A stretch of DNA of 64,000 nucleotides from Candidatus Omnitrophota bacterium (GCA_903908245.1 CAIVRE010000009.1:677-64676); one strand, 5' to 3'; shown: positions 2,781-34,525, counted from the first letter of the stretch. Notes: generated from the letters alone by a model not told the origin. Numbers and translations are program-made.

Positions 2781-2978
2781 TCAGGGTGTAACAAAAAAAG
2801 CCGAAAACTCAACAGGATCCATAAATGGCTGCAGGCTGATGATCTGGATGTCGAACCCCCGGAATAACTGAAGAGCCTGGGATGCGCGCATCGGCGAGAG
2901 ATGATCCAGGTCCCCGGAGACCCCATGATCCGGCTCAAAACGGATCTTGCGGGCCGTATCCGAAAGATCAACGCCGCC
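2781..2978 (-). other. Conserved C-terminal family module (~65 aa) of giant protein A
   Basis: GGVDLSD...L..LQ.F.GF...I.SLQPF is similar to the GGIDL...FNID..L..LQD..GFSPVI..I.P tails of the other three paralogs. Confidence 0.6.
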
Positions 2979-5900
2979 ATTCTCGTTTTGCGCGGCATTA
3001 TCCTGCGATGGATTATTGATCATTGCCAACCGTGAAAGGATCTGCTTGCGCAACGGGGTCATCCTAAAATTCTTTCTGGCGGAGATCTGACCGTATAAAC
3101 TTCTAAGCTGCTTCATATATACTGCGGGGTCAATAAATTCTTTTGCAGCACGCAATACTTCGATCTTCTTTTGGATCGCCTCAACCTCGGTTGCATACTG
3201 AAGATATTGCTGCGCCAGACCCGCGAGGACCGGGTCGCTTTCGGATGCCCGCCCGGAAACTTTCTTCGCAAACTCTTCTGTCCGCACAAAAACCTGACTA
3301 TTGACCTTTCGGATCTGTTTCCTGTGCATTTCAGGGATACTGGCCCCTTTTTCACCGCGTAATCCCTCGGCCATCTTTGTCAACACCCCGATCTCCGTCG
3401 CATATTCAGAATATTCTTGTGTCAGGCCCGAAACGACCGGATCATCCTTTGATCCCTGCCCCGCCGGAAGTTCTTCCTCCTGTTCAGACACCTTCACTTC
3501 CCCTCCCTGCGGCACACTCTCTGCCACAACAATGGGCTCTGCATTAGGGCCCACAACTTCCAATATCGGTCGTTTTTCGGGCAACGGCACCCCCGACAAC
3601 CATGGAAGGGACGTGGGGGATCCCCCCGCACCCAGGCCCAACAACCTGTTAACGGCCTCCACGTCCTGCGTTCCATTAATATGGATCAGCAATGCATCCC
3701 CCGGGTACGGCAGGGCAGCGTTAACCGTAAGGCTGTCCGGCACATTGCGCCTCTTGGCCTGGGAAAGCATTAGATAGAACGACCGGAAAAGATCAAAGGC
3801 GTCTGCCCTCTCACCCTCCTCATAATTATTTTGAATATCTGCCCATTCAGTCCGGATCTCGGGATAATCCTTGCTGATCTCACTTTCAGGTTTTACAAAA
3901 ACATTAAGGATATCATTAGTAAAATTAAGATACTTGAGCTGGCCGGCCAAACCCGTCTTTTTACCCAGTTGATCCAACAGATCGGTCACGGTCGCCACAA
4001 CCCTTGGCCCAAGGATCATAACGCCCGTTAATGCCGGGAACTGCTTCAACGTGTTATTCTTCAGATCATATTTCTCACGCAAATACTGTAATATTTTGCT
4101 GGGATGCACACTTTTCTCTTGATTTTCCTGCAACCGCCCAATATCCAGCTTCTCCAGGATCTCCCTGACGGGAGGCCGTGTCCGGGTAACATCAATATTA
4201 AGAAGGCCAAGGCCCTTTAACGCCTGCCCATCCACCCAATTGCCCAATAATCCGATATCCGTGCCCTCGAATCCCTGCATGGGGCCGAAATAGGCATCGC
4301 GGCTATAGATCAAAATGTGCCCGCCCCGTTCCGCCCCATGGCCAGGCCGCACCGGCTGCGAGGACGACTCGGAACACGGCCCGTTCATACACGCAGAAGT
4401 GCGATAACCGTTGATGACAGACCAGTCCAGGACACTGTCACTGCGCAACTCCCGGCTGCCGGCAAAAACAAACATCACTTTCAGATCACTCCACGGGATA
4501 CCCTTCAGATACGGATACCTGTCTGTAAAATCACTGTCCTGCAATCGGCTTTGAACAAACTGCACGGCCTCCAAATACGCATTCCCGCTTCCCTTTAATT
4601 GCGCAGGCAATACTTCAACCGGGACATCTTCCCTGAAAATACTTCCGCGACGGGAATCAACATACTGCTTAAGGCTGTCAACATCATCCGCATCCGGGTT
4701 CTCGGGAAGGATAACAAGCATGTCAATGCTTCTTTCATTCTCCGGCGCGATCTCCCAGCGCAGCTTCTTCATCCCGTCTTTCACGGCCAACTGAACACTA
4801 TTCTCATCGGAGCTGTTTAGCACACCAGCCGCAACCGATGCCCCCAACCTTCCACGCAGATCGGATACAAGTTTGTCGGTAACGCTCTTCATGGTCTTGC
4901 TCCACGACATTTGCATGATATTCGCATGCGGCACCCAGAAAATACCCATGCTGATCGCAACCGCCGCAATCCCTGCCAGAGATAACCCCATTGTCCCGGT
5001 CACACCGAACAAGACCATCACACCAAAGATCGTAAACCCGAAAGGCACTGAAAACAGCCGCAACCGGCTTATAAAACTGCGCATTTTATGATTATTCCGT
5101 GCCGTCAGCGACCCAAGGGAAGTTAAATTACTGGCATTCTTTATAACAGCCGACAATACACTTTTGCTCTGTTGCTCAATGTCCCCCGGATCCCCATAAA
5201 AAGACGGCATCAGGGTGTTGCCCTGCCGCAACAGGTCTGGCACCTCTTTCTTGATCTGTCGTTCAGACCTGGTCAACTGATAACTGTATAAAAGAGCCCA
5301 CCGCATAAATGGATAGATCTTGAAGCGCTCGGCCCAATGATCGTCCGCAAATTTATAATTCATTACTTTGTCTATGATCCCCCGATACTCCAGGATCCGC
5401 AAATACGTGGTGACATATTCCATCATTCGCGCCAGCGTCTCCGCATCGCCCAATAATTTCTGCTTCTGGTAATCATCCAAAGACGCATCATCCCTTTGAA
5501 GAAGATCATTCATGGCATTGATCGTGTCAATGGCCAGCAGATTAAAATGGCTCAACACCACCTGGTATCGTTCATTGAGGATCGGGTCGGACCCCTGCCT
5601 CAACATCAGTTCGGGAGTATACGGAGTCTTGCGAAGGATATCAAAAGCGCTGTTGAGAATAGCGTTAAGATCACTTAAAACAGCCTGCGGGCCTGGCTGA
5701 ACATGCCTCCATTGGGACACAAGAGTTCTCCAGCTCTGTAACGGCTTGATGACCGCCTCGTCAAGGCCCCTGTTCGGAATGATGACCACATCCGACGACA
5801 ATCCCTGGATATTAACCTTTCCATTCCCGTTGCCGCTTTCTGCAGCAAATTCCTGACGCAGCTCGCGGATCATGTCGCCGGTCTTGGCCATTTTTCTTAG

Positions 5901-8900
5901 GATATCTTTACGGATCTTCTTCGCGCCAACCCAGAAAAGAAGACCGCCGACCAGCGCCAGAACAAGTTGTGACGCCACGGTAAGCCTTGGAAAACCCTGA
6001 TCATTGCCGCTGATAACTCCGGAAAATTTATCCCTCAACCCGACAATGTCCCTGACCATATTGTTCGTTGTTTTATCTCCACGGGCACTTAACTGATCCA
6101 GATATTCATTCACTTCCTGCGGATCATTTGCAGATCCGATCCTTTGCTTTAACTCACGGATCAGGGCCTGTTCACGGGGCGTATAGGCTGCCTGGCCCGA
6201 TAACCAACGCATCTGATGATTTGCCCTCTCGGCGATCAGGTCCAACGCCAGACGCGTTGCTTCCACCTTGATCTGCTGCATACGAGGAGCCTCACCTCGC
6301 GGGTCGCTCGCCGCATGCAGTTCCGGCAGAGTATACGTTCCGAGACGGACGTTCAAAAGCCCTTTCTCACCGACGCGATCCGCCATCTTTTCCATGGCAT
6401 GCCTGTAAACATCATTAGAAGCCGGATTATCAACGGCCTGCACATCCGCACGCAAAATATCGACCCAATGACGGCTGTCCACCAGGTCTAAAAGCCCTTT
6501 ATCATTTGAACCGGCATAAACCTGCAACGCCATCATCCGTCCGAGAGCGGTCGTCATCAAACGGTCCAGGGCCATACCCCTCAGCGATGTCTGTGATCGA
6601 AGGATACGTGCGAGCTCGGGGATATTATTCGTCCGGGCGATCTGCCTCTTCTGATCCTCCAGGTTAAGTCCATTAAAATACGCCAACGACGACGTCCCCT
6701 GCCCCCCTGCCGCCGTAATGCCGCTTAAAAATGGATCCAACCCTGTTGCCGCACGACCATTCAATGAAACGAGTGTTCCCGCGGCGATCTTCGCCCTTTC
6801 GTATAATGCCGGTGCAATAAAATCCTTCATCTCTCTCCATCTTGGAGAAGTCATTAAAAACCGGCGGTCAGCGGAACTCCATTCCCGCAGCATCACCAAG
6901 GCACGAAGGTCCTTGTCAAAAACAACCGACGAAAGATTGGCGAATGGCCCGGGGTAAAAAACATCTTCCATATTGCCCAAAGCCTCGCGCCTCAGGATCT
7001 CGTCATAGATCAGGACGGCCAGGCCTTGCGGTACCGATCCCGCCTGGCCTTTAAGGGTGTTATAAGTTTGCGCCAACTGATCCGATGTCCAGTAATCACT
7101 CTGCAACAAGCGCGACCTGGCAACGGAATCTTCCGGCGCCCAGGAGAGGAAAGCCAACAAGGCACGACGGCCCGCACCTGACTGACCCTGTCCGGCCAAT
7201 TGCCCAACAGCACCGGGATCCTGGATGAGGATATCACTTAACATTTCAAAACCAACCCCTGCGACACCAGGTTTTCGCTGATCAATGGCCTTCTCGATCA
7301 CCTGCGTCAGGAACCGCACATCATGACCGTCCCGGTTGACCGCGAACTGCAAAAGATTTACCACCACTTCAGAGTAGGGCGAATTAAGAACGGCCTGTTC
7401 AATGCCGGACAGAGATCTCCGGTCATTCGAAAGCTCCTCTGTCAGGAGCTTCATCGCCTCTGCCCGGGCCCTGATATTGGAGTCCTGTGTCAGGATCCCT
7501 ACGGCGATATCGATCTGAGCTTGCCGTGGATCTCCGGCTTCCGGGTTACTCATCAAAGCCCATAAATTCGATCCGCTCTTCCCGTCCGAAACCCCCGGTA
7601 CGGGGTAGATCACTGCTCCGGCGGATAATACCCCGGGATCCTGACGCTTTGAATTCAGCCCCTGCTGCCCTGGACCGAAGCCGGACAGATCAAGGGTCAA
7701 TTGCCCTTCTCCAATATCTCCCGCGAACACACTGCCACCGGCAACGGCTGAAACAAGCTGTGGGGCGAACGCAGCCGCTCTTGTCCTCGACGGCCTCACC
7801 AGAGACTGGTCCTGTTTCATTACCTGGATCCGCCCCAAACGGGCCTCAGCCTTGAAATATTCCGCTTTAAGGTCGATCAGCCGTTCAAAGGCCTTTGCCA
7901 TCCGCTGATGCTCGTCGACCAGTTGATCTTTCCTGTAAAGATCCGGCCGTCCGGCTTTCTCCTGCCACGCGTTCAAGGCAGCCTTATGCTCGGCCTCTCC
8001 CTGTTCGATCTGACGGCTCAAGTCCCTGATCTCCGACACGGCTTTAGTGAATGCCTCACCAAGCTCTGCCTTGACGGTATCCAAATGAAGCTGGACCTTC
8101 GCCCTTTCCAAAAGCACGATCTCCTTGCGCGCATCCCTGCCGGAATCAAAGATAGGAAGTTCAAAATGTAGCGCCCCGTTGCCTCCTGTTGTCAAAGAAC
8201 TTGTCCTCATCTTTGACCCGGGAGAAAGATCATACAACGGATTGACCGCCTGCCCCTGGGATCCGGAAATGAAGAGCCCCGTCAGGTCCGCTGTCGGCAA
8301 ATATTCCGACCCCTGCAACTTGATCGTTTCTTCCACGGCAGCCCGGGCAACCTGCGCCCCCCGCAGCCGGTAATTGGGGCTGCCCTCTCCTGTCAATTGG
8401 TGCCGCAAGGACTCCTGTTGATCAGCGGCAATCGCCAGGAATTCTCCATCCCACAATAATTTCGGGGAAATATCCTCCTGCAATCTTTCAGCGGGCCGGC
8501 CCAGCATCTGGTTAAGCTCGATCGTCGATTGTTTCTTCTTGTTCTGCCAGCTCAACAGCTGCGCACGGAATTCGCCGGTCTGCTGGGCCAGAACATTAAG
8601 GTCAGAGGTAGTAGCAAAACCTCCCGCCTCCCTGGCCTTAAGCCCTTTTTGCGCCTCTTCCAGATCGGCAACCAGCGCCTGAAGCTGAACAATATGCTGT
8701 TGGGCACGTCCGATCTCAACGAACAGGGCCGTTGCATCGTTGACCTGTCCGGCAACCGCATCTTCCATATGATGCTGGGCGATCTGGGTCATTTTTAACG
8801 CCAGCGCTTTCTCTTTTAATTTCTTCCCTGAAACGACATCCATGATCTCGCCGGCCACACTAAATACAATCGGAGAAGCCGCGGCAATAGCATTACCGGT

Positions 8901-11900
8901 CGAAACACCGGCCATGACATCGTCAAAAACACCATTAAGCCCGCCGCTGAACGCCAGCTTGCCATTGTTGTTCACAAAAACACCGGCCTGTAAAGCCAGG
9001 CGGGAACTCCCCGACAAACGCTCCGACGCCTTGCTCTTAAGAACATCAATGGTCAACTCACCATTAAGAAAATTGTTCCCTGAGACCCGTGCAACCACCT
9101 CCGTAATATTCAAGTTCGCCGCGGGTTGAACAGGCAACCGCAGGAGAGCCTCCCCCATCTGCACAGGCAAAGGTTTAACCCCGGCCTCAGACGATCGAAA
9201 GACCAGCCGCGGATCCATTTGAGCCAGAACACCGTCTTGCTGTCTTGCAGTATTGATCCGGTCCTGTTCCGACTTCCCCAACGCTGCCAGAATAACGGGG
9301 CTTTCCGCCTCTGTCGGCACAATAATCTGAACCGGCAGGTTGACCCACAAAACGCCGTTCCTGTCTCCATCTACGATGACCGCGACAGCCTTGACAGGCC
9401 CGAGATCGATTTCCCGTCCCACAGGGGCCTCATTGACAGCAGATACCCTTCCCGCCAGGCGTTCACCGGACGGCGCCTGAACAAGAACGGGGTCTCCAAT
9501 TCCGAGCTTCACATCCTTCGGCAACAAGATAGCCGTATTCATATCATTAATATCACCGACCGTAACACGGCCTGTTCTTACCCTCAGAAGTTCGTCCCCT
9601 TTGGAGAATGATGACGAATGTTCCGAAAGGATCCCTGTAACAACGCCGCTTTCCGTCGCCACGACCCGAAGGCGGGATATCTGCCCCTGAAGCGTCAATA
9701 TCTGCGCCCGTAACGACGCCCTTCTGGCCTCTAACTCCGCCTCCTGGCCGCGAAGAGTATGCCGGACACCCGACCCATCCGGCCCGGCTTGCGCAAGCTG
9801 AGCCTGAATGCTGTTAAAAGCCTTGACCGCACCGCGATATTCCTCAAAGTATGATCCCTCCACAACCTCGGCGACTACCTGACCGGCCTCAACCCTGTCC
9901 CCCTCTTTAACAAAAAATTTTACAGGTCCGCGCGCGGGAGCTACCATGACCCGCTCTTCCAGCTTACGGACCATCGCAAGTGTCTGCGCCTGTCCACGAA
10001 CAGCATCAAAATTGGCCTGCGTCTTCAGCGGCGGAAATATTTCAGCCTCCACCTGAACCGTACTGTTCGGCGGGATCATCGAAGAAGTTGTAACAAGGAA
10101 CGAAACGATCGCCCCGGTCTTTTTCGGATTGAGCTGCCAATCAACGCTCACAATATTCTTGACCGGCTGGCCATCGATCCTGAAATTACGGATACGGCCA
10201 AAATATGTCTGAGTCACCGGGATCTCGATATTCAAACGAGCCCTTTGTCCGTAATAGTAACTGACGATATCCACACCCTTGTTCACCGTCATTCCATTAG
10301 CCACCAGAACCTCTTTAATGGAAAGGTCACACGGGGCTTTAACGGCTTCAACAGAACCCTTCTGATCAGCCTGGGCCAACTGCCTGCGAAGCTCATTGAT
10401 CCTTTCTTCCACCGGGGTGAGCTCTGCGACCGTCGCCCCGCCTTGAGCCTGCAGTCCCTTCAAAACCCTGTAGGTCCCTTCTTCGATAACCAACCGCCTG
10501 GCCAATCCTTCCCGTTGCTGCACTCTCTCAGGATCGATCAACGAAAAGATAATGTCTCCCTGCTTGTACTGTCCCTTGCTCTGGTCAAGGCCAAGGACAA
10601 TACCGCCAACCTGGGCCGTCAAACCAGCCTCGTCAAGGACAAGAGGGGTCTTCGCCGAGATCACATACGGCTTCACAAAGGCCATTTCTGCCTCGACCAT
10701 CTTGGCCACTCCGGCATCGGCATACTTTTGATCCGCAACACGGATAGCGGGTGACACCTCGACTGCGGGAGGATATTTGATCGGGACAGCCTTGGAGCTT
10801 GCCTCAGGAGCCGGAACAGCGGCAGGCACGAACAGTTTCTTGACGATCGTTCCATCCGATCGAGGATGAACATCGTGTTTTTCAACATTGTTCCCGCCAG
10901 GAAGGCCATATGACACAAAAGTGCCGGCCGGAAAGATCGTATAAATACCCTTACCTCCCTCATAACCTACCAGCAGCTTCGTGCTTTTCGTCAACGGGAT
11001 AAATCCCTGGATGTCAAGGTCCGCAACGATCGTCTCTTCTCCGGTCTCCCTGTTTATAAGAGTACCCGAAGCAACCGATCGCGTTTTGGTTCCCTGATGA
11101 AGTTCTGCATCCTGTCCTGGCTGCTCCAACACGATCGGTGTCACGCGCTCAACAATGGCGGGATGCGCCGGCCCAGGCAATGGATCATTACCGGTTATTG
11201 TACACCCGGAAGAAGTACACAATCCAGCCGACGCGGCGAGAACCAACAATAACTTTCTTGATACACCCTTTGGAAGCAAAGAGAACTTTAAACGAAAGAA
11301 ATTGCTGACCGGCAGGACTGTTTTACCAGAGAAGAACGAAACAGGCCGGAACTGGATCTTTTGCGCTGCATCTTCGAATGAAAACCCACCCGAAAAATAC
11401 CGCCTGGGCACTGCCTCCTGCTGACCGGGGTCATACTCCTCCCGGATCATGTCGTAAGCGCCCTGCTTGAGCGCCAGCATATACTGTTCATAGATACGCT
11501 GACTTGCGCCCCTGTCTTTTGTATCAATACCCGCTATTTTCTTCCGGCCAGCGTATATTTGATTAACAATATTGCTCTTAAGCTGGCGCTTGAACCAGAT
11601 CGCCAGTATCAATGCGTGATACATTTGACGCAACTGGGCGAACTGCGGGCCATCGTTCACTTCCCGTTCGATCTCCGGGATAATGATCTCGCGTGTGATC
11701 GTAGAGCACAATCCATTGATCTTTTCACGATCGCCGGCGGGTACCGCATTATCGGGGACGATCTTTTTCATGCTCAAATAGTCTTCATCGAGCAAAACTT
11801 TCAGACGGCTCCCGGAAATGAACGCAGCCCCATCTTTCTCATAAACAACAGCACTCTCGGGGATCACCCATACCTTGTTAACGGAATTCAGGGGGACATC

Positions 11901-12449
11901 AACATTGCCATATTGCTGCCTGATCTTTATGTAAACCTGTTCCCAGAATTTCTTTCCCAGTTCGTGCTCGGGATTGGTCATCGAAGCGGCGATCTGTTTC
12001 AGGAAGTAATCCTGTGTCAGCATGTCCTTCCCCGCCGTTGTCGCGCCAAAGACCGGATTGACGATACGGTCCGGCTCGGCCGGAGAAAGGTTGACCCAAA
12101 GGTCCTTTGCGGGAAATGTCAGGAACGTAAGAAAATATTTTATAAGCGACCTGGACTGTTCCTCATCCACTTGCGCATGACTCCCGGCATCAACGACAAA
12201 ATTGATCTTGAACGGGTCATTGGGATCAAGTGAGATGGCTTTGAGATTGGGGATAAAAGACGGGGGTGCTATGGATAATTCCACTCCTGGCGGAGGCGCC
12301 ATCACAATGCTTTGCGCGTGTGCCTCCCGAACACCCAGGATATCAAAAGAATAAACAAGCAATAACGCCCAGATCATACATTGGAACCATGGGCGCCCCC
12401 TTAAGGCAAGTGAAGGATTCAGTTTTCTCTCTCGGGTCAATTGACGCAT
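2781..12449 (-). CDS. Giant secreted multidomain protein, paralog A (3222 aa). N-terminal family module, internal signal/lipobox-like segment, two HlyD-type membrane-fusion modules, TolC-like outer-membrane-factor module, 3 predicted TM helices, family C-terminal module
   Basis: Uninterrupted 9.7 kb ORF. N-terminal module aa ~46-355 is homologous to the three other giant ORFs (DPFKINF, DLWVNLSP, GKKFW, LRQMY, PRRYFSGG). Real start may be the internal Met at ~12377 (MIWALLLVYSF...AHAQ signal peptide). Confidence 0.9.
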   Translation of the reverse strand: MRQLTRERKLNPSLALRGRPWFQCMIWALLLVYSFDILGVREAHAQSIVMAPPPGVELSIAPPSFIPNLKAISLDPNDPFKINFVVDAGSHAQVDEEQSRSLIKYFLTFLTFPAKDLWVNLSPAEPDRIVNPVFGATTAGKDMLTQDYFLKQIAASMTNPEHELGKKFWEQVYIKIRQQYGNVDVPLNSVNKVWVIPESAVVYEKDGAAFISGSRLKVLLDEDYLSMKKIVPDNAVPAGDREKINGLCSTITREIIIPEIEREVNDGPQFAQLRQMYHALILAIWFKRQLKSNIVNQIYAGRKKIAGIDTKDRGASQRIYEQYMLALKQGAYDMIREEYDPGQQEAVPRRYFSGGFSFEDAAQKIQFRPVSFFSGKTVLPVSNFFRLKFSLLPKGVSRKLLLVLAASAGLCTSSGCTITGNDPLPGPAHPAIVERVTPIVLEQPGQDAELHQGTKTRSVASGTLINRETGEETIVADLDIQGFIPLTKSTKLLVGYEGGKGIYTIFPAGTFVSYGLPGGNNVEKHDVHPRSDGTIVKKLFVPAAVPAPEASSKAVPIKYPPAVEVSPAIRVADQKYADAGVAKMVEAEMAFVKPYVISAKTPLVLDEAGLTAQVGGIVLGLDQSKGQYKQGDIIFSLIDPERVQQREGLARRLVIEEGTYRVLKGLQAQGGATVAELTPVEERINELRRQLAQADQKGSVEAVKAPCDLSIKEVLVANGMTVNKGVDIVSYYYGQRARLNIEIPVTQTYFGRIRNFRIDGQPVKNIVSVDWQLNPKKTGAIVSFLVTTSSMIPPNSTVQVEAEIFPPLKTQANFDAVRGQAQTLAMVRKLEERVMVAPARGPVKFFVKEGDRVEAGQVVAEVVEGSYFEEYRGAVKAFNSIQAQLAQAGPDGSGVRHTLRGQEAELEARRASLRAQILTLQGQISRLRVVATESGVVTGILSEHSSSFSKGDELLRVRTGRVTVGDINDMNTAILLPKDVKLGIGDPVLVQAPSGERLAGRVSAVNEAPVGREIDLGPVKAVAVIVDGDRNGVLWVNLPVQIIVPTEAESPVILAALGKSEQDRINTARQQDGVLAQMDPRLVFRSSEAGVKPLPVQMGEALLRLPVQPAANLNITEVVARVSGNNFLNGELTIDVLKSKASERLSGSSRLALQAGVFVNNNGKLAFSGGLNGVFDDVMAGVSTGNAIAAASPIVFSVAGEIMDVVSGKKLKEKALALKMTQIAQHHMEDAVAGQVNDATALFVEIGRAQQHIVQLQALVADLEEAQKGLKAREAGGFATTSDLNVLAQQTGEFRAQLLSWQNKKKQSTIELNQMLGRPAERLQEDISPKLLWDGEFLAIAADQQESLRHQLTGEGSPNYRLRGAQVARAAVEETIKLQGSEYLPTADLTGLFISGSQGQAVNPLYDLSPGSKMRTSSLTTGGNGALHFELPIFDSGRDARKEIVLLERAKVQLHLDTVKAELGEAFTKAVSEIRDLSRQIEQGEAEHKAALNAWQEKAGRPDLYRKDQLVDEHQRMAKAFERLIDLKAEYFKAEARLGRIQVMKQDQSLVRPSRTRAAAFAPQLVSAVAGGSVFAGDIGEGQLTLDLSGFGPGQQGLNSKRQDPGVLSAGAVIYPVPGVSDGKSGSNLWALMSNPEAGDPRQAQIDIAVGILTQDSNIRARAEAMKLLTEELSNDRRSLSGIEQAVLNSPYSEVVVNLLQFAVNRDGHDVRFLTQVIEKAIDQRKPGVAGVGFEMLSDILIQDPGAVGQLAGQGQSGAGRRALLAFLSWAPEDSVARSRLLQSDYWTSDQLAQTYNTLKGQAGSVPQGLAVLIYDEILRREALGNMEDVFYPGPFANLSSVVFDKDLRALVMLREWSSADRRFLMTSPRWREMKDFIAPALYERAKIAAGTLVSLNGRAATGLDPFLSGITAAGGQGTSSLAYFNGLNLEDQKRQIARTNNIPELARILRSQTSLRGMALDRLMTTALGRMMALQVYAGSNDKGLLDLVDSRHWVDILRADVQAVDNPASNDVYRHAMEKMADRVGEKGLLNVRLGTYTLPELHAASDPRGEAPRMQQIKVEATRLALDLIAERANHQMRWLSGQAAYTPREQALIRELKQRIGSANDPQEVNEYLDQLSARGDKTTNNMVRDIVGLRDKFSGVISGNDQGFPRLTVASQLVLALVGGLLFWVGAKKIRKDILRKMAKTGDMIRELRQEFAAESGNGNGKVNIQGLSSDVVIIPNRGLDEAVIKPLQSWRTLVSQWRHVQPGPQAVLSDLNAILNSAFDILRKTPYTPELMLRQGSDPILNERYQVVLSHFNLLAIDTINAMNDLLQRDDASLDDYQKQKLLGDAETLARMMEYVTTYLRILEYRGIIDKVMNYKFADDHWAERFKIYPFMRWALLYSYQLTRSERQIKKEVPDLLRQGNTLMPSFYGDPGDIEQQSKSVLSAVIKNASNLTSLGSLTARNNHKMRSFISRLRLFSVPFGFTIFGVMVLFGVTGTMGLSLAGIAAVAISMGIFWVPHANIMQMSWSKTMKSVTDKLVSDLRGRLGASVAAGVLNSSDENSVQLAVKDGMKKLRWEIAPENERSIDMLVILPENPDADDVDSLKQYVDSRRGSIFREDVPVEVLPAQLKGSGNAYLEAVQFVQSRLQDSDFTDRYPYLKGIPWSDLKVMFVFAGSRELRSDSVLDWSVINGYRTSACMNGPCSESSSQPVRPGHGAERGGHILIYSRDAYFGPMQGFEGTDIGLLGNWVDGQALKGLGLLNIDVTRTRPPVREILEKLDIGRLQENQEKSVHPSKILQYLREKYDLKNNTLKQFPALTGVMILGPRVVATVTDLLDQLGKKTGLAGQLKYLNFTNDILNVFVKPESEISKDYPEIRTEWADIQNNYEEGERADAFDLFRSFYLMLSQAKRRNVPDSLTVNAALPYPGDALLIHINGTQDVEAVNRLLGLGAGGSPTSLPWLSGVPLPEKRPILEVVGPNAEPIVVAESVPQGGEVKVSEQEEELPAGQGSKDDPVVSGLTQEYSEYATEIGVLTKMAEGLRGEKGASIPEMHRKQIRKVNSQVFVRTEEFAKKVSGRASESDPVLAGLAQQYLQYATEVEAIQKKIEVLRAAKEFIDPAVYMKQLRSLYGQISARKNFRMTPLRKQILSRLAMINNPSQDNAAQNENGGVDLSDTARKIRFEPDHGVSGDLDHLSPMRASQALQLFRGFDIQIISLQPFMDPVEFSAFFVTP
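11384..12311 (-). other. Conserved N-terminal family module of giant protein A
   Basis: Aligns by eye with the N-termini of ORFs 15127-17514, 19215-22448 and 50492-55183. Confidence 0.8.
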
Positions 12450-15126: not shown

Positions 15127-15318
15127 TTACTTCTGCTCGTTCAACCCTAAAAACAACCTCAGATCACTCATCGGCTCAATATTGATGATAACCGGCGAAA
15201 AACCCAGAGTGTCCTGAAGTTCCTGTAACTTCACCTGATCAATATTGAACTGCAGCCCATCACCCGAACCTCGTGTTTCCACGCTCAAACGTTCCGCCGT
15301 CAGGTCAATACCACCTTT
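15127..15318 (-). other. Conserved C-terminal family module of paralog B
   Basis: KGGIDLTAERLSVETRGSGDGLQFNIDQVKLQELQDTLGFSPVIINIEPMSDLRLFLG. Confidence 0.7.
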
Positions 15319-17514
15319 GGTGGCGTCCACCTTCCCCTCAGGAACCTTGGGGATCGAAGACTTCTCCAGATACGCGTTCAACGTATTGATCAACCGTTTT
15401 GTCAACGGAGCCAGGGCTGCAGGGCGAACTCCCTCTCTCACAGGCAAAAGCAACTGCCGTCCAACCTTAAAAAAATACTCTTCTATTACTGTCAGGTCTT
15501 CCGATCGGATATATCGCTCAACATCCTGAAGTATCTTTATTCCTTTACCGTCCTTAAAATACGGATGTTCCAACAAGGCATCAAAAAAACAGAAATCATC
15601 TTCGGAAATTGCCCCTTCAGGCAAATCCCTCGCGCCATACTGGGCCAAAAGGATGGCTAAAAACAAAAGCTCATGCCTGGCTGAATCCGGCTCCCCGTTG
15701 ACCGATAAACGCTTGTTGCCAATATCGACCATAATGACTTCCTCTGAAGGCCCCCTGACAATGAAATTCCGGCCATGCATATCCTTCGGCAGGATCCCAT
15801 GCAGGGCTGCTGCAATGGTCAGCAAGGTGCTCGTAACCTTCTTCTTAAGGGTAATGGTCAATTTCTTTTCCTGGGCATATTCTTCGATCGTTCGCCCTTC
15901 GATAAACTCTTCCACATAAACAACCCTGCCGCCTTCAGAAACAAATAACCCGCCCCATTGCGGAACGCCCCGGCCGTTCAATTGCCTCAAATTATTCGTT
16001 TCATGAGACCCTATGTCCTTTTGATTTTTCGCCCTTTTAACGGCCAGAAGAATATAAAAAGACCCGCCTTCTTTTAACGTGAATTGCATTTTGTAAACAT
16101 ATTTAAAAGCCCCTTCACCTGCGAATGAGACCGACACTTTTTCATCCAGATCATCCAGGTGTAAATTCGGGTGCTTGCTGATATTCTTTAGAAATTGCAA
16201 TAAAAGGCTCGGCTTCACCTTCTCGAACATTTCCATGGAAACGCTCAGCATATCGCCATAGATCTCTGTCCTCTTTTGATCTGTCTCCGCTATCAGAGGC
16301 CTCTGCACATCAACCCGAAAATGCGGTGCCTCTGCCCCTGGGTTGACAAGATCGTTTGTCGCCTCTGCCCGGTCAAAGCGTGACTGAACGACAGATAACG
16401 CACCCCGTGAATTCCTGTCATCGATCATGCTGCCGTCCGCAATAACTGTCATTGACAGATCGGTAAGCTGGGAATAATTCACCCCTCCCGAGAAATACTT
16501 CCGCGGGATAAGCTCACCGGAGACCGTATCTTGCTCCTCCTTGATAAGATCATAGGCGCCCTTCTTGAACGCCTCGACATACTGCGCCCAGATCTTCTCC
16601 GACTCCAAAGGATCATTAATATTGACACCCTCGACCTTGTTACGGTCAACATACACCAGGGACAAGACGCTCTGTTTGATCTTTTTCTTGAACCATGCCG
16701 CCAGGATCAACGACTGATAAACCTGACGTAACTTGGCAAAATTCTTCCCCTCATTGACCTCTTTCTCAAGCTCAGGGAGAACGATCGCACGGATCACATT
16801 CTTGGCCAGTTCCTGGGATTCCTTAACGGCTCCGGAAGCTTCACTACCTGCCCCAGTTGTGACCGAATTATTCAAGGCCACATAATCGCTTTCAAGCATG
16901 ACCTTGAGGCGGCTCTCAACCACATACGCCGTCCCGGCCTTGGCATTCTCATAGACCACGGCCTTCCCGGGAATAATCCAGACCTTATTAAACGTATCCA
17001 CCGGGATATCGGTGGTGCCATATTTCTCCTGCGCCTTTTTGTAAACCGCGGCCCAAAACTTTTTGCCTGTTTCGCCCTCGGGATAAATGACGGACGCTGT
17101 GATCTGTTTGAGAAGATAGTCCTGCGCCAAAAGATCCCGGCCCATTTCTGTCCGGCCGAACGCATCCGGCACAATACGGTCTTTTTCATAAGGGCTAAGA
17201 TTCACCCAAAGATCTTTCTCGGGAATAGTCAAAGACGCCATGAAATACCGGATCAGCCGCGCAGACTCCTCTTTGAGCTGATCGGACGAGTCCGGGAAGT
17301 TCCCTTTATCGAGAATAAAATCAAACCGTAATGGATCGGCAGGATAAACCTTGATGCCTTTGAATACCGGCGGCGCAAAAGGCGCGCTTAAAGACACCAT
17401 GGAACCAGGTGCAGGAAGAACAACGCTCTGGGCGTAAGAGGCAGGCACACTCGCGGCCACGAAGGCTATCAGCGTAAACGCTAAAATGAGTCTTTTTAAA
17501 AACCCCTTTATCAT
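15127..17514 (-). CDS. Giant-family secreted protein, paralog B (795 aa): N-terminal family module, protein-kinase-fold domain, C-terminal family module
   Basis: Signal peptide (..AASVPASYAQS); N module aa 31-345; kinase-like region aa ~455-660 (FAGEGAFKYVY, AVKRAK, DMHGRN, VDIG); C module aa 732-795. Confidence 0.9.
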   Translation of the reverse strand: MIKGFLKRLILAFTLIAFVAASVPASYAQSVVLPAPGSMVSLSAPFAPPVFKGIKVYPADPLRFDFILDKGNFPDSSDQLKEESARLIRYFMASLTIPEKDLWVNLSPYEKDRIVPDAFGRTEMGRDLLAQDYLLKQITASVIYPEGETGKKFWAAVYKKAQEKYGTTDIPVDTFNKVWIIPGKAVVYENAKAGTAYVVESRLKVMLESDYVALNNSVTTGAGSEASGAVKESQELAKNVIRAIVLPELEKEVNEGKNFAKLRQVYQSLILAAWFKKKIKQSVLSLVYVDRNKVEGVNINDPLESEKIWAQYVEAFKKGAYDLIKEEQDTVSGELIPRKYFSGGVNYSQLTDLSMTVIADGSMIDDRNSRGALSVVQSRFDRAEATNDLVNPGAEAPHFRVDVQRPLIAETDQKRTEIYGDMLSVSMEMFEKVKPSLLLQFLKNISKHPNLHLDDLDEKVSVSFAGEGAFKYVYKMQFTLKEGGSFYILLAVKRAKNQKDIGSHETNNLRQLNGRGVPQWGGLFVSEGGRVVYVEEFIEGRTIEEYAQEKKLTITLKKKVTSTLLTIAAALHGILPKDMHGRNFIVRGPSEEVIMVDIGNKRLSVNGEPDSARHELLFLAILLAQYGARDLPEGAISEDDFCFFDALLEHPYFKDGKGIKILQDVERYIRSEDLTVIEEYFFKVGRQLLLPVREGVRPAALAPLTKRLINTLNAYLEKSSIPKVPEGKVDATKGGIDLTAERLSVETRGSGDGLQFNIDQVKLQELQDTLGFSPVIINIEPMSDLRLFLGLNEQK
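16479..17421 (-). other. Conserved N-terminal family module of paralog B
   Basis: About 70 percent identical by eye to the paralog C module; motifs YPADPLRFDF, DLWVNLSPYEKDRIVP, EMGRDLLAQDYLLKQ, GKKFW, TTDIPVDTFNKVWIIP, RLKVMLESDY, LRQVYQSLILAAWFKKK, PRKYFSGG. Confidence 0.85.
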
Positions 17515-17636: not shown

Positions 17637-19064
17637 TTAATGCAGGTCTTTATTAATTATTTTTAAATTAAATAAATCGGTGTTCTTCGTCTCTTTGGAA
17701 TATAAAAGGGCAATAAAGGTCAATACCGCAAGCACCGAGAGATAAAGCCCGACAGAACCAACCCCATGATTCCTGGCAAGCCAGACAGCGGCGAAAGGAG
17801 TCAAAGCAGCCCCAAGAATAGACGAAACATTATAAGAAATGCCGGAACCGGTGTAGCGCACATTGGTCGGGAACAGCTCTGGAAGAATAGCCGACATGGG
17901 GCCGAAACTCAGGCCCATCAATGCCATACCAATACATAAAAACAACAGCATGAGCCCCATGTTCGCCCCCTCTCCCGTTCCCATGACCGCGGGAGAAAGA
18001 AAAGAATTGAATGAAAGCCCGAACACAATAATGGCAAAGGTCACCACCAAAAGGACACTGCGGCGGCCGAACCTGTCTGCCAGCCAACCGGCGATCGGGA
18101 TCATCCCTGCAAAAAAGAGAACGGAAAGAAGCTGCAACACCAGGAAACTCCGGTAGCCGATCCCCAGGAAACCTAATTCTGTTTTACCAATAGCGTAAGA
18201 GAGTATCCAGGTAGTCATCAAATAAAAAACCCCATATGTGGCCAGCATAATAAAGGTGCCAAGAACGAGTTCCTTGAAATGGTTCCGGAACACAACAGAC
18301 AAGGGGTTCTTGAGTTTCTCCCCTCGCGCCATGGCCCGGGCAAAGACCGGTGTCTCTTCAAGCTTGAACCGCACGTACAGCCCGATCGCCACCATAAAAA
18401 ATGATGCCAGAAACGGGATCCGCCATCCCCAGACGAGAAAATCACTCTGCATCTGCGCCTGGGCAGAATTGTAATTGAAGAAAATAGTTAGCAACAAAAA
18501 CGATCCGTTGGCGAGGATAAACCCGAACGGCGCGCCCAACTGCGGCCACATTGCAGCCCAGGCCCTTTTCCCGTCTTTGGCGGTCTCTGTGGCCAAAAGG
18601 GCCGCCCCCGACCATTCACCACCGAGACCAAGCCCCTGACAAAAACGCAAGATCGTGAGCAAAACAGGAGCCAGTAACCCGATCTGGAAAGCCGTCGGCA
18701 AAAGGCCGATCAGGAAGGTCGCAATGCCCATGGTGAACAACGACCCTACAAGAGTTGCCTTGCGCCCTATCCGGTCCCCGAAATGCCCGAAGAGAATGGA
18801 ACCGACCGGACGCGCCACAAAGGCAACGCCGAAAGTGGCCATGGATGCCAAAAGAGCCGCGCCTGGGTCACTCTTGGAAAAGAAAAGAATAGGAAAGACC
18901 GAAACAGCGGCCGTGGCATAGATGTAGAAATCATAGAACTCGATAGTCGTGCCGACCATGCTGGCAATAATGATGCGTTTGTGCGGTACTCCTACCCCGC
19001 TATCAGATACATCGACCACCGAAATATTATATGACAAAAACTCCTCCTGAAAGATCTTCTTCAA
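17637..19064 (-). CDS. MFS transporter (metabolite:H+ symporter-like)
   Basis: 475 aa, about 12 predicted TM helices, GHFGDRIGRK motif in loop 2-3 and second GWLADRFGRR motif. Confidence 0.8.
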   Translation of the reverse strand: MKKIFQEEFLSYNISVVDVSDSGVGVPHKRIIIASMVGTTIEFYDFYIYATAAVSVFPILFFSKSDPGAALLASMATFGVAFVARPVGSILFGHFGDRIGRKATLVGSLFTMGIATFLIGLLPTAFQIGLLAPVLLTILRFCQGLGLGGEWSGAALLATETAKDGKRAWAAMWPQLGAPFGFILANGSFLLLTIFFNYNSAQAQMQSDFLVWGWRIPFLASFFMVAIGLYVRFKLEETPVFARAMARGEKLKNPLSVVFRNHFKELVLGTFIMLATYGVFYLMTTWILSYAIGKTELGFLGIGYRSFLVLQLLSVLFFAGMIPIAGWLADRFGRRSVLLVVTFAIIVFGLSFNSFLSPAVMGTGEGANMGLMLLFLCIGMALMGLSFGPMSAILPELFPTNVRYTGSGISYNVSSILGAALTPFAAVWLARNHGVGSVGLYLSVLAVLTFIALLYSKETKNTDLFNLKIINKDLH

Positions 19065-19214: not shown

Positions 19215-19418
19215 TTACAGACCGCCTGCGGCGTTCGGCTGAATTCCCAGGAACTGTTGTAAACTTTCCGCCGGAAGTATCGACATGATCACCGGGGAAA
19301 ATCCTTCCGCGTCCTGCAGTCGCTGAAGCATGACCGGATCGATATTAAATGTAATCTCCCCGCCCTGATTGCGCACCACCAACCCCAGCTTGTCCGCGTT
19401 AAGATCGATACCACCTTT
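19215..19418 (-). other. Conserved C-terminal family module of paralog C
   Basis: KGGIDLNADKLGLVVRNQGGEITFNIDPVMLQRLQDAEGFSPVIMSILPAESLQQFLG. Confidence 0.7.
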
Positions 19419-22400
19419 GGTGTCTCCTGTTGGCAAATGCCCGACAGGCACCGCACTACCAGCCGAAGACAACAAACTATCAGGGACTTGATAATCAGAC
19501 CGCAAAAGACCCATTGCTTTAAACACATCACAATAAAAACCAACATCCTTATCTGACATGCCGTCAAACATAAAATTCCTTCTTCCCGACCCATAGCCCT
19601 GGAACAACCAAGCCATCACCTCTTTACCCAACCGCTCATCAGACCCGATGGTGCGATTACTGAGAATATCGGCAAGAACATCCCCGTATGTCCCGCTGAT
19701 CCTGTTCTTTAATACCTCCCATTTACCTGCACTCTGAAGTCGTTGTAGCATGTTAAGAACGATTTCCGGGGACTTTTGCTGATAAGCATGCAATAACTCA
19801 TGCAGGATCGACGCCTTTGTCTCTTGTCGAATATATTCTGCAGCGACACGATACGGATCCCTGTTCATCGAACGCGCCTCGAGAGCGATCTTGTCAACAA
19901 CATCGCCCCTCTTATTGATCAACGCAGCGCCTATGGCCATATTCAACATCTGTTCTTTGCTTTTGAAAATAGGGCGGAAACAAATCCCCGTCGCAGGATC
20001 AAAGAAAAAGAACGGGGTTGCGCTCATGTTCAATTGCATGAATGCCCCGCCATTCCCGACAAACGGCGCTTTCTGAAAACTCTCAGGATCTTTGATATTG
20101 ATGCCCAACTTCTCCAACAGATCCCCGAGCACAGGATTGGCAAGCGCCTCTCCACGGGCCTGACGAAGATATTCCTCCTGCCCCTTCTCGCCGAACACAT
20201 CCAAATGCCCTTCAGGGATCTTGTCATTACTGGCAATATAACCGGTCAAGCCATTGCCTTTACTTGCAGGAACTTTTATTGAATTTCCATTAAGTCCATC
20301 GAGAACAGATAAGACGCTCCCCAATTCTTTTGTGATACCCGGGCCCAATTCTCCTCTGTTGTTCGGTGCAAGCGGCGCTCCATCCCGACTAAAAGAACCG
20401 ATCCCCGCAGACTCTCCGGTCCAGCTCACCGCCACTGGCGATCCAAATGCAAGATAATTCTGCAGTCCCGTCATCCCTATAAAAGCCGTACCTTGAGGAG
20501 CCGCCTTCAAACGCTCTCTCAGACCATTCACGGCCGATTTATACTCTTCAATTGTTTGTTGGGCCTCCTTGATCTGCGCATTAATGAACTCAATGAAAGC
20601 CCCCATTCTCGCTTGAACAACATACGGGCGTCCGTCGGGTGTTCGATCGTATTGAAACCCATTCAATAACTGTCCCGTACGTCCCAGGGCTTCCGGACTG
20701 ATCCCGGACTCTAAATAACCTTTGGCCCAATCAAGGAATTTTTGAGACTGAAGCAGATCAACACTCATACTCGACATTTGATGCAAATACCCCCTCACAT
20801 TCCCAACGGGGTCTGCGAGCTCTTCATCAAAAATAACACGCACGGACTTTCCGTTCGATGAAGTGAACCTGAACCCGCCTTGAGTGCTCATCTGCCCATT
20901 GATATCCGCCGATCTTGGCACAAGAATGACCCGCCCACCCATCCGGCGATCAACCTGAAAAGTCACCACAAAGTCACCATCAAAGATCACCCCTGAGAAA
21001 CCATTATTCAAGATCAACTTTGCCTTGTGTCCCGTATATTGAAGCATGTTATCGCCTAAAGTTGCAACAGACAGGGCCCCATCCCTATCCAACTCAACCC
21101 GGTTAAGATACTGATCCCATCCCTCGGATGCTCTGCCATTGGCCCGGAGAACTCCTTCATTAAGACCCCCCTGAAACACGACCCTGTCGCGTGCTATTTC
21201 CTGGCTCCCGGCAACAGCAGCACTTCCAGGATCTTTGGCCGCCTGGACCACCCCAGCAATGCCCGCATTGGCATTATTAAATGTGGTAAGCGTCATCGAG
21301 ACGACCAACATCCCGAGGAATGCCGCCCGCGAGAACCCCCCGGTCATTTGCGCCGGGCTTGCCGTCACATTCAACACCGGCGACATCGCGAAGTTCACTC
21401 CACCCGAGAAATACTTCCGCGGGATCATCTCGTCGGCGTAAACATCCCGTTCTTCTTTGATGTAATTGAACGCACCCTTCTTGAACGCCTCAACGTAACG
21501 ACCCCAGATCTTTTCCGACTCCTTCGGGTCATCAATGTTGACCCCCGCGACCTTTTTCTGGTCGACGTAAACCTTGCTAAGAATGCTCGCCTTCACCTTT
21601 TTCTTATACCAGGCCGCCAGGATCAGCGATTGATACACCTGGCGCAACCGCGTAAAGTTCCTGCCTTCATTGACCTCTTTCTCAAGCAAAGGAAGGACGA
21701 TCTCCCGGATAACATTCTTGGTGAGTTCCTGCGTTTCCGGCACAACACCATTGCCTGAAAGCTCTGGCGCCTTCACCACCGCATTATCCAGCGCAACATA
21801 ATCGCTCTCCAGCATGACCTTGAGCCTGCTGGCAACAACAAAAGCCTTATCCCCGTTCTCAAAGACCTCGGCCTCGGCAGGAACGATCCAGACTTTATTA
21901 AAAGTGTCCACGGGAATGTCCGTTGTGCCGTACTGCTCGGCCGCTCTGCGATAAACCTCGGCCCAGAATTTTTTGCCTGCTTCACTCTCGGGATAAATGG
22001 CGGATGCGGTCACCTGCTTGAGCAAATAGTCCTGCGCCAGAAGATCGCGCCCCATCTCGCTCCGCCCGAATTCATCAGGGATGATGCGGTCTTTCTCGTA
22101 AGGCGAAAGGTTCACCCACAGATCCGTCTCGGGAACGGTCAGGCTGGCCAGAAAATATTTGATCAACCGGTTCGATTCGTCTTTTAATTCAGCACCAGGA
22201 TACACGGAATCACCTTTATCCAGAAGGAACTCGAAGCGGAACGGATCGTCGGGATGGACCTTGATTCCTTTAAGGACAGGCGGATTAAACGTTGAGCTTA
22301 ACTCAACCCGACTACCCGGTGCCGGTAAATACAAGGCACCCTGAGCATATGCATCGGGAACGATCTGGGCAAGGACCAATAAAAAAGAAAGGGCGCTGAC

Positions 22401-30121: not shown

Positions 30122-30128
30122 AACATTA

Positions 30129-34497: not shown

Positions 34498-34525
34498 CAC
34501 GATCCTCCCGACAGCCCCTGATCGG

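Follow-up and report, generated by a model that had tools for sequence, protein, structure and literature searches.

The window, a 64,000-nucleotide stretch of DNA from a Candidatus Omnitrophota bacterium, contains an uninterrupted reading frame of 9.67 kb with no stops, which encodes a protein referred to here as giant protein A. Its parts are listed below from the N-terminus to the C-terminus.

2781..12449 (-): giant protein A, whole ORF, 3,222 aa plus stop
12312..12449 (-): signal-peptide-like N-terminus, aa 1-46 (sequence reading and family alignment)
11265..12311 (-): N-domain, aa 47-395, common to three paralogues in the window and >600 protein clusters
11193..11264 (-): conserved hydrophobic segment, aa 396-419, preceded by basic residues; candidate membrane anchor of ambiguous topology
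10668..11192 (-): Pro-rich linker, aa 420-594, variable in length and sequence
10035..10667 (-): MFP module 1 (MFP1), aa 595-805 (profiles, PDB alignments, hhalign, AF2, Foldseek); strands 595-638, hairpin helices 640-668 and 674-696, lipoyl second half and beta-barrel 700-805
9318..9989 (-): MFP module 2 (MFP2), aa 821-1044 (same evidence as MFP1); strands 821-862, hairpin helices 865-888 and 900-925, lipoyl second half and beta-barrel 928-1044
9108..9317 (-): spacer, aa 1045-1114; helix 1050-1077 and low-confidence 1081-1110 (AF2)
7815..9107 (-): TolC/OMF module, aa 1115-1545 (OEP profile, family matches, AF2, Foldseek); helix 1115-1145, strands 1150-1184, long helix 1187-1276, helix 1281-1316, helix 1342-1383, strands 1386-1390 and 1426-1430, long helix 1436-1499, helix 1507-1540
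5979..7757 (-): conserved region, aa 1565-2157, probably periplasmic
5889..5978 (-): transmembrane helix and basic stretch (KKIRKDILRKMAK), aa 2158-2187, read as outside to inside
5130..5882 (-): all-helical domain, aa 2190-2440, probably cytoplasmic
4911..5108 (-): transmembrane helical hairpin, aa 2448-2513
3630..4721 (-): alpha/beta domain, aa 2577-2940, sugar-1-phosphate nucleotidyltransferase fold, closest to GDP-fucose pyrophosphorylase
3015..3440 (-): long coiled-coil-like helices, aa 3004-3145, in a variable-sequence region
2784..2999 (-): C-terminal domain of ~60-70 aa, aa 3151-3222, common to the paralogues; low AF2 confidence

The unusual size of the ORF is the sole point in favor of an artefact, in which a misassembly, frameshift or missed stop joined separate MFP, MFP and TolC genes. 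The frame is stop-free over its 9.67 kb, an identical protein (P0121; cluster-mate P0278) is present in independent ENA/NCBI assemblies, and collinear ~3,000-aa homologues were found in ENA, NCBI, JGI and Logan data. The identical protein and the collinear homologues refute this explanation, and we regard its likelihood as negligible.

Adaptor and duct modules

Adaptors and the outer-membrane channel are normally encoded as separate proteins. The initial annotation had placed two HlyD/MFP-type modules and then one two-repeat TolC/OEP module in giant protein A, and the profiles, AF2 and Foldseek upheld this order and the approximate boundaries. All the motifs it had quoted were found at their positions within the single ORF 2781-12449 (-): QYKQGDIIFSLID at aa 627-639, VKAPCDLSIKEVLVANGMTV at aa 703-722, VKEGDRVEAGQVVAEV at aa 847-862, VVATESGVVTGIL at aa 929-941, ATTSDLNVL... 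at aa 1279-1317, PIFDSGRDARKE... at aa 1432-1457 and YFKAEARLG at aa 1531-1539.

The profile scan was run on segments of giant protein A. OEP (PF02321; E 5.5e-11, 43 bits vs a cut-off of 22, two stretches), HlyD_3 (23.1 bits vs 22.2, aa 703-807) and Biotin_lipoyl (25.1 bits vs 22.1, aa 843-862) were above the Pfam gathering cut-offs. NCBIfam RND_mfp (TIGR01730) matched both MFP modules (2.8e-7 and 7.5e-5) below the NCBIfam cut-off, and the matches of Biotin_lipoyl, HlyD_2 and RND_mfp, taken together, cover both modules. NCBIfam TolC gave 4.5e-4 and 19 bits vs a cut-off of 225, so the OMF module is not a TolC equivalog. Among diverged family members, OEP matched 12 of 15 (best 1.6e-12) and HlyD_D23 matched nine of 15. 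A PDB sequence search with the single giant protein A sequence found nothing significant; the family profile matched the adaptors 4l8j (4.9e-10), MacA (3e-8), EmrA (1e-6) and MexA (1e-4), with separate stretches for each MFP module.

Both MFP modules follow the order of lipoyl half, alpha-hairpin, second lipoyl half and beta-barrel. In the AF2 model, hairpins at aa 640-696 and 865-925 split the lipoyl domain, and strands of the beta-barrel follow the second lipoyl half at aa 700-805 and 928-1044. By hhalign, the two modules are homologues (96%, E 1.5e-9), and MexA matched the model by Foldseek (E 5e-9, TM 0.63, ~250 columns). The hairpin spans (57 and 60 aa) and the 17-aa linker between the modules are conserved in length across the family, and MFP1 has a conserved tip motif, 'L..L....AAT..E'. 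RND- and MacB-type adaptors have a membrane-proximal domain, while EmrA/HlyD types do not. This domain is absent from both MFP modules in the AF2 model, where the ~210-225 aa of each consist only of hairpin, lipoyl domain and beta-barrel.

A typical OMF is a free-standing protein of ~420-500 aa with its own signal peptide or lipobox. The OMF module is instead internal to the 3,222-aa chain, between MFP2 and the 590-aa region, and ~81 residues separate aa 1045 from aa 1125 in most family members. The AF2 model of the modules (pLDDT 78) shows the canonical secondary-structure order, and its pTM of 0.46 is uninformative on how the modules pack. In the model, the OMF module has four beta-strands and long helices in antiparallel order, as in the OMF protomers that each contribute a third of an alpha/beta barrel. 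Foldseek matched it to about 15 different solved OMFs, including TolC, OprM, OprN, CusC, VceC, MtrE and CmeC (E 8e-14 to 7e-10, target TM 0.54-0.70 and 0.6-0.7 for TolC, OprM and CusC, ~460 columns). The long-helix spans (90 and 64 aa) are conserved in length across the family. The tip motif 'R..GGF' and a 35-aa loop between strands 1386-1390 (S4) and 1426-1430 (S5) are also conserved. Both strands are short, and the loop between them is of low confidence in the AF2 model.

Another possible explanation is that a chance or compositional (coiled-coil) likeness to the OEP and HlyD profiles was scored and the real folds are absent. The null PDB search with the single sequence and the NCBIfam scores under their own cut-offs speak for it. 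Against it, the Pfam cut-offs were exceeded and the structural match spans the full OMF protomer length, beta-strands included. The matches in 12 of 15 diverged relatives, the AF2 secondary structure and the Foldseek matches refute this explanation, to which we give almost no credence. The module likenesses are far beyond chance, and the presence of two MFP modules and a complete TolC/OMF module in one chain of giant protein A is confirmed.

Flanking regions and membrane topology

The first 46 residues contain a basic stretch, a hydrophobic core of ~14 aa and 'AHA|Q', a putative cleavage site at which the family alignment conserves 'AYAQ'. The N-domain (aa 47-395) had no Pfam or NCBIfam match. 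MFPs typically have an inner-membrane anchor just ahead of them, either an N-terminal transmembrane helix or a lipid. Here, a conserved hydrophobic segment at aa 401-419, basic on its N-side and without a conserved Cys, lies 175 residues upstream of MFP1. The topology of the N-terminus is contradictory, since the signal-peptide-like start and aa 401-419 cannot both cross from inside to outside.

The conserved region downstream of the OMF module (aa 1565-2157) had no profile match. Beyond it, three transmembrane helices are predicted (one single and one helical hairpin); they carry basic cytoplasmic flanks, and ~1,000 downstream residues are predicted to be cytoplasmic. Therefore, giant protein A is an anchored envelope protein, and the earlier description as a secreted protein is not supported. 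The AF2 model of aa 2140-3222 is confident (pTM 0.71). The domain at aa 2577-2940 has the alpha/beta fold of nucleotidyltransferases, and after its strand 1 the family consensus is 'VIxPED', with no Gly-rich loop ('GGxGxR', the catalytic loop). The C-terminal domain follows the pattern 'GG[IV]DL ... GF.. I ... P'. No transporter or ATPase module, Walker A motif or ABC signature was recognized in the chain.

The family and a proposed export machine

About 40 clusters of ~3,000-aa proteins have the whole architecture in common, and their modules and linkers hardly vary in length. The relatives are labeled Omnitrophota wherever the source names the organism, and public sources label them only 'TolC family protein' or 'biotin carboxyl carrier protein'. 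These clusters and 35 representatives found at E<1e-30 are collinear between aa 595 and ~2940, with identities of 23-57% and with ~1,600 residues downstream of the MFP-OMF cassette co-conserved with it. What the modules are and in what order they stand is established, as is the fact that they are conserved and that their lengths and those of the linkers vary little.

The lower coiled-coil half of an OMF is the part that contacts the adaptor hairpins in known pumps. Exactly these lower halves are retained in the partial-deletion variants, the relatives without the beta-barrel half (P0138, P0151, P0186 and P0187). Another relative is without the whole OMF (P0135) and one is without the whole MFP-OMF cassette (P0194). 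These relatives show that the channel is dispensable in some lineages and, therefore, not essential to the family core. Their persistence could also mean that the TolC-like and MFP-like modules form an envelope strut, which would tie the inner membrane rigidly to the outer one as a spacer or surface-structure anchor and transport nothing. Length conservation would equally suit a spacer, and no energy module was found in the chain. However, most members keep the full channel fold, with both long helices and both beta-hairpins, and the conserved tip motifs are typical of the adaptor-duct interface, so we judge a strut improbable.

A tripartite pump usually has its cognate transporter encoded in the operon of its other parts. 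The nearest genes encode a porin, a PstS-like protein, NDH-2 and LpxB, and the neighbors at two homologous loci are housekeeping genes. No ABC, RND or MFS gene adjoins the giant protein A gene in the window or its counterparts at those loci; the window's one MFS-type gene (17637-19064) is ~5 kb off, past four other genes. Giant protein A could still be the outer half of a conventional pump, a 6:3 assembly that docks on an ABC, RND or MFS transporter encoded elsewhere in the genome, with no role for the remaining chain beyond anchoring or regulation. In its favor, the MFP modules resemble RND, MacA and EmrA-type adaptors most, and the chain itself is without a recognized engine. In opposition stand the lack of an adjacent transporter gene at the three loci, the missing membrane-proximal domain, which RND/MacB adaptors use to grip the transporter, and the ~1,600 co-conserved downstream residues, which argue for an integrated machine. 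We consider docking on a separate transporter unlikely. The initial annotation had suggested a self-contained conduit, and this was not supported: the chain has no transporter or ATPase module and no membrane-proximal domain, and relatives are without the barrel half, the OMF or the cassette.

The explanation we favor, with some reserve, is a family of ~3,000-aa envelope-spanning proteins in which a single polypeptide makes up the outer two-thirds of a tripartite export system and works as follows. Sec would export the chain up to residue 2157, starting at about residue 47 (or about 420). To our knowledge, all known OMFs trimerize. A trimer of this module would use two beta-hairpins per chain to make a 12-stranded outer-membrane barrel with an alpha-barrel of ~100 Å below, as in known OMFs, and would thereby bring along six MFP modules. 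A chain with two MFP modules and one OMF module is consistent with the 6:3 ratio of pumps if the OMF trimerizes, and the linker lengths would allow it. The 17-aa linker would let MFP1 and MFP2 sit next to each other, each such pair being one of the three dimers of a hexameric ring, and the ~81-aa spacer would be long enough for the ring to fold back beneath the OMF tip, hairpin tip to coiled-coil tip. The downstream region of ~590 aa would lead the chain back to the inner membrane, where the three transmembrane helices would fix it. The cytoplasmic helical domain and the GDP-fucose-pyrophosphorylase-like domain would occupy the place of the canonical ABC, RND or MFS engine. Our guess for the cargo is a glycoconjugate or a polymer of the envelope, or else the paralogues with which giant protein A has its N- and C-terminal domains in common.

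A bolder version, which we consider rather improbable, is an unrecognized single-gene trans-envelope export machine of Omnitrophota. In it, three identical chains would together make the outer-membrane pore and a ring of six adaptors. The region at aa 1565-2157 would be a novel base in the periplasm, and nine helices would form an inner-membrane/cytoplasmic platform that carries a nucleotide-sugar-binding domain. The machine would export a glycopolymer or hundreds of N-/C-terminally tagged paralogues, possibly toward host or prey cells.

The 6:3 stoichiometry and tip-to-tip docking of tripartite pumps were long debated before they were settled. A natural, conserved chain of two adaptors and one duct is independent evidence, drawn from evolution, for an adaptor dimer per duct protomer as the functional unit, and structural work could use giant protein A directly as a single-chain construct. 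The fusion also suggests an apparatus that spans the envelope and runs without any of the known inner-membrane engines. Omnitrophota are an uncultured phylum, partly predatory or symbiotic, and these findings provide an initial functional clue to one representative of a very large family of long proteins with unexplained N- and C-terminal domains in common.

Comparison with known systems

The adaptor-channel fusion had been called highly unusual, and in agreement with this, our literature search yielded no paper describing a fusion of two MFPs and an OMF. The giant Omnitrophota proteins reported previously (West-Roberts et al. 2023, 10.1101/2023.11.21.568195; Seymour et al. 2023, PMC10066038; a 2026 preprint, 10.64898/2026.06.07.730766) come from the same phylum and are likewise very long, with a signal peptide, transmembrane segments and few annotated domains. 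These studies deal with ORFs >20 kb, whose products exceed ~6,700 aa, or with a catalogue of 916 long proteins (2026 preprint) and discuss them as adhesins or cell-wall-degrading effectors. A term search of the texts found neither TolC nor efflux in any of the three, and no HlyD in the two preprints.

Bucl8 of Burkholderia pseudomallei (PMC7682875) is also a natural OMF with two OEP domains and extra fused sequence. It differs in its extracellular collagen-like tail, its separate adaptor and transporter genes, and its lack of the adaptor modules and inner-membrane and cytoplasmic domains that giant protein A has.

The TolC/OMF family (TCDB 1.B.17; TolC 1ek9, OprM 1wp1, CusC 3pik, VceC 1yc9) shares the two OEP repeats and the protomer fold of two beta-hairpins, two long helices of ~65-90 residues and two shorter return helices. 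Its members are free proteins of ~450 aa with their own signal or lipobox, whereas the module in giant protein A occupies aa 1115-1545 of a 3,222-aa chain and is flanked by large domains, has the conserved 35-aa S4-S5 loop and is only 12-15% identical to them; the likeness is known from sequence and a single-chain model.

The MFPs (TCDB 8.A.1; MexA 1t5e, MacA 4dk0, EmrA 4tko, HlyD) have the same split lipoyl (barrel-sandwich) domain, alpha-hairpin and beta-barrel, which occur twice here. Unlike them, giant protein A has tandem copies in one chain, separated by a 17-aa linker, with short hairpins (~24-29-residue helices), and these are covalently joined to the duct they would normally bind. An adjacent transporter gene and a membrane-proximal domain are also absent.

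TriABC uses two adaptors, and fused adaptor dimers are functional. A system like the tandem is the engineered TriA-TriB fusion of TriABC-OpmH (PDB 6vej), in which two non-identical adaptors are the repeating unit, three per pump; the family profile matched this fused chain (E 2.6e-4). Fusions of this type are laboratory constructs or the adaptors are separate genes, and none includes an OMF, whereas the tandem in giant protein A is natural, conserved and fused to its duct.

Adaptor and TolC-like modules of protein A

A single uninterrupted ORF, window 2781-12449 (-), encodes all 3,222 aa of protein A, and each peptide quoted from it in the initial annotation was found at its given residue number. 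That annotation described two HlyD-type adaptor modules followed by a TolC-like module in window 7814-10661, which corresponds to aa ~596-1545, and profiles, an AlphaFold2 (AF2) model and Foldseek all bore this out. The two adaptor (MFP) modules and the TolC-type outer-membrane factor (OMF) module are referred to here as the cassette. The model covers aa 585-1565, was built from a 31-sequence alignment and has a mean pLDDT of 78.2.

Elements of the cassette in the AF2 model
MFP module 1 (aa 595-805): strands, helical hairpin aa 640-668 and 674-696, strands to aa 805, then a short linker
MFP module 2 (aa 821-1044): strands, hairpin aa 865-888 and 900-925, strands to aa 1044
Adaptor-to-OMF spacer: helix aa 1050-1077 and a 30-residue low-confidence stretch
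OMF module (aa 1115-1545), first half: short helix, beta-hairpin region aa 1150-1184, long helix 1187-1276, return helix 1281-1316
OMF module, second half: equatorial helices, two short strands around a 35-residue loop, long helix 1436-1499, return helix 1507-1540

The order of the OMF elements in the model is TolC-type. Foldseek against the PDB matched TolC, ST50, OprM, OprN, OprJ, VceC, CusC, SilC, CmeC and MtrE (E 8e-14 to 7e-10, target TM-scores 0.54-0.70, ~460 columns), as well as MexA (E 5e-9, TM 0.63, ~250 columns). Each adaptor module has a size of only ~210-225 residues and, therefore, lacks the membrane-proximal domain, as do adaptors of the EmrA/HlyD type. The predicted structure confirmed the cassette domains as two adaptors and an OMF.

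When the whole protein was scanned, Pfam OEP (PF02321) reached 25.9 bits against a gathering score of 22, the HlyD and lipoyl families were weak, and NCBIfam returned RND_mfp (3.4e-9, two stretches) and TolC (2.4e-3). RND_mfp matched MFP modules 1 and 2 separately. The HMM scan of the cassette that had been proposed at the outset put OEP, HlyD_3 and Biotin_lipoyl all over the Pfam cut-offs; by segment, OEP scored 43 bits (E 5.5e-11, two stretches), HlyD_3 23.1 bits (cut-off 22.2; aa 703-807) and Biotin_lipoyl 25.1 bits (cut-off 22.1; aa 843-862). A single-sequence comparison of protein A with PDB sequences gave nothing significant. When 15 family members were combined into a profile, it matched solved adaptors, on distinct stretches of module 1 and module 2: 4l8j (4.9e-10), MacA 4dk0 (3e-8), EmrA 4tko (1e-6), MexA (~1e-4) and the engineered TriA-TriB fusion 6vej (2.6e-4). 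Scanned individually, 12 of these 15 members contained OEP (best 1.6e-12) and nine contained HlyD_D23.

The two MFP modules are homologous by hhalign (probability 96%, E 1.5e-9, 127 columns), which points to a tandem duplication. No likeness between the two OEP repeats of protein A was detected by hhalign; given that the fold match extends over the full length, the OMF assignment was not doubted on this account. The S4-S5 loop of the OMF (aa ~1391-1425, window 8175-8279 (-)) carries a conserved family motif, 'NPLYDL.PG...RTSSL..G.N'. It has a near-constant length of 29-36 aa (12 in two members) and is predicted, at low AF2 confidence, to face outward.

The protein A family and its deletion variants

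The central region of protein A had no match in a word-indexed homology search. With the 950-residue query, an exhaustive search of 1.84 billion representatives returned 61 proteins, including 35 at E<1e-30; the majority have lengths of 2,400-3,500 aa and align over the entire query. Protein A itself is present at 100% identity in another assembly (P0121), and its cluster-mate P0278 occurs on five contigs. By BLAST, the relatives are 23-57% identical to protein A over a collinear stretch, aa ~595 to ~2940, and the N-terminal ~350-aa domain and last ~60 aa are also common to them. A profile search found about 40 clusters of such ~3,000-aa proteins, with the source names 'TolC family protein, partial', 'outer membrane protein TolC', 'Outer membrane efflux protein' and 'biotin carboxyl carrier protein'; their precomputed Pfam matches include OEP and barrel-sandwich-hybrid families. 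The cassette could be an artefact, or its similarity to pump components could be due to chance. Both explanations are refuted by the family from the exhaustive search, the collinear relatives, the recurrent profile matches in members and the Foldseek match, and we give either almost no credence.

A genome-contig scan with protein A alone found no relative; with a 4-sequence alignment, the gene was found in two GTDB species representatives, one an Omnitrophota MAG and the other labelled Ca. Elulimicrobium. The locus titled 'Candidatus Elulimicrobium sp.' (L004, DYOU01000011.1) encodes a 42%-identical relative. In NCBI taxonomy, the genus belongs to the Patescibacteria group rather than to Omnitrophota; either the label is discrepant, or the family has a broader taxonomic range.

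Across 31 members, module lengths were near-invariant despite a mean column identity of ~25%, and motifs at the hairpin tips and OMF tips were conserved.

Lengths of cassette elements
Inter-adaptor linker: 17 aa
Adaptor hairpin spans: 57 and 60 aa
OMF long-helix spans: 90 and 64 aa
Adaptor-to-OMF spacer: about 81 aa (51 in one member, 73-104 in the others)

Several relatives have lost parts of the cassette. P0135 lacks exactly the spacer and OMF module (protein A aa ~1099-1581), and P0194 has neither the adaptors nor the OMF. Four others (P0138, P0151, P0186 and P0187) keep of the OMF only aa ~1237-1345 and ~1462-1545, that is, the lower halves of the long helices and the return helices, with both beta-hairpins and the upper barrel gone. 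Therefore, the cassette is an accretion on an older core, made up of the N-domain, mid region, TM helices and nucleotidyltransferase-like domain, and some lineages can do without the outer-membrane pore. In known pumps, the tip coiled-coils of the OMF are the surface bound by the adaptors; that precisely these are retained hints at selection for the adaptor-tip interaction. A cassette acting as a strut in the envelope, with no transport, is quite improbable in our estimation; the loss of the upper barrel in four relatives would favour a strut, and the conserved tip motifs speak against it.

Topology, tag domains and gene context

Conserved hydrophobic segments of protein A were found at aa 22-40, 401-419, 2158-2176, 2465-2483 and 2488-2506. 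A second AF2 model covered aa 2140-3222 (pLDDT 79.5, pTM 0.71).

Elements of aa 2140-3222 in the AF2 model
aa 2158-2187: TM helix, followed by a strongly basic stretch
aa 2190-2440: all-helical domain
aa 2448-2513: TM helical hairpin
aa 2577-2940: alpha/beta domain, followed by long helices
C-terminal end (aa 3151-3222): C-terminal tag, poorly predicted

By their basic flanks, these helices would place aa 2177-2464 and everything beyond aa 2513 in the cytoplasm, and the cassette, like all else up to aa 2157, in the periplasm. While the observation and domain assignments made for protein A initially held, its description as secreted did not, since the predicted topology is that of an anchored protein. 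The N-terminus (window 12312-12449 (-)) resembles a cleavable Sec signal with a conserved 'AYA|Q', and aa 401-419 (window 11193-11264 (-)) are signal-anchor-like, inside-to-outside, by their basic N-side. The two are mutually exclusive because both would cross inside-to-outside; either aa 401-419 do not span the membrane or the N-domain is cytoplasmic. A lipoprotein lipobox at aa 396-419 was rejected, as the Cys residues of protein A are not conserved among relatives. A conserved region of ~590 aa (aa 1565-2157, window 5979-7757 (-)) separates the OMF from the next TM helix downstream; by topology, it should lead from the level of the OMF equator to the inner membrane again. This region matched no profile and no PDB sequence, the N-domain had no profile match, and no Walker A or ABC signature motifs were found in protein A.

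Three window paralogues share only the N-domain and C-terminal tag with protein A.

Tag-bearing genes of the window
2781-12449 (-): protein A, with tags at 11265-12449 (N-terminal) and 2784-2999 (C-terminal)
15127-17514 (-): paralogue
19215-22448 (-): paralogue
50492-55183 (-): paralogue

All four have a signal-peptide-like start, a ~350-aa N-domain (40-66% identity) that matched nothing in Pfam or NCBIfam, and a ~60-aa C-terminal domain, 'GGIDL...GF.P.I..I.P'. The superfamily comprises >600 clusters, Omnitrophota wherever named, and homologues of the N-domain are 'Candidatus Omnitrophica/Omnitrophota' in every source giving a name. The middle parts carry cytoplasmic-type enzymes: kinases, PP2C, SNF2 helicases, radical SAM, methyltransferases, NUDIX, HAD and M48+UbiB. 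The two shared domains resemble tags by which proteins would be targeted or secreted.

The gene content of the window is that of a Gram-negative chromosome (LpxB, porin, FadL-type outer-membrane protein, PFOR, BatA-D/MoxR operon and fatty-acid synthesis genes). The BatA-D-like aerotolerance-type cluster (27534-35518 (-)) contains TPR/SH3, BatD, TPR, two VWA/BatA proteins, DUF4381, DUF58 and a MoxR AAA_3 ATPase; the mechanical ORF list shows an overlap of ~100 nt between ORFs 33580-34629 and 34526-35518. The protein A gene is flanked by a porin and a PstS-like gene downstream and by NDH-2 and lpxB upstream, and two homologous loci have succinyl-CoA ligase, Mrp/ParA-type genes and complex I as neighbours. 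No transporter gene is adjacent to the protein A gene, and there is no conserved operon partner in the window or these two loci. The cassette might still serve a pump encoded separately, which we consider unlikely.

Proposed mechanism and comparison with known systems

On balance, we lean toward protein A acting as a homotrimer in which the OMF modules would form a TolC-like pore and alpha-barrel. The 2:1 ratio per chain would give 6:3, with six adaptor modules forming a ring docked below the pore. Each chain would be fixed in the inner membrane by its own helices, and the downstream region and cytoplasmic domains would replace the classical transporter. The linker lengths are compatible with this arrangement: the 28-residue helix and about 50 flexible residues of the spacer presumably reach well beyond the ~100-120 A needed, as estimated from known pump dimensions. 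Were protein A to transport, the nucleotide-sugar-type domain suggests a glycoconjugate as cargo, and the common tag domains point to the paralogues.

In structure, the cassette is adaptor plus OMF, and it would work as such. Known OMFs and adaptors are free-standing proteins, whereas the modules of protein A are not, and known tripartite systems usually form an operon with a transporter, which the protein A locus does not. Within a limited coverage of the literature, a natural adaptor-OMF fusion is not mentioned in the part covered of a large tripartite-system review or in an outer-membrane pore fusion survey, and neither TolC, HlyD nor such a fusion was found in the papers on Omnitrophota giant proteins covered. 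Among known systems, those nearest to the cassette are covalent adaptor dimers made by engineering and TriABC, a pump with two adaptors (6vej), together with OMFs fused to other sequence, of which Bucl8 is an example.
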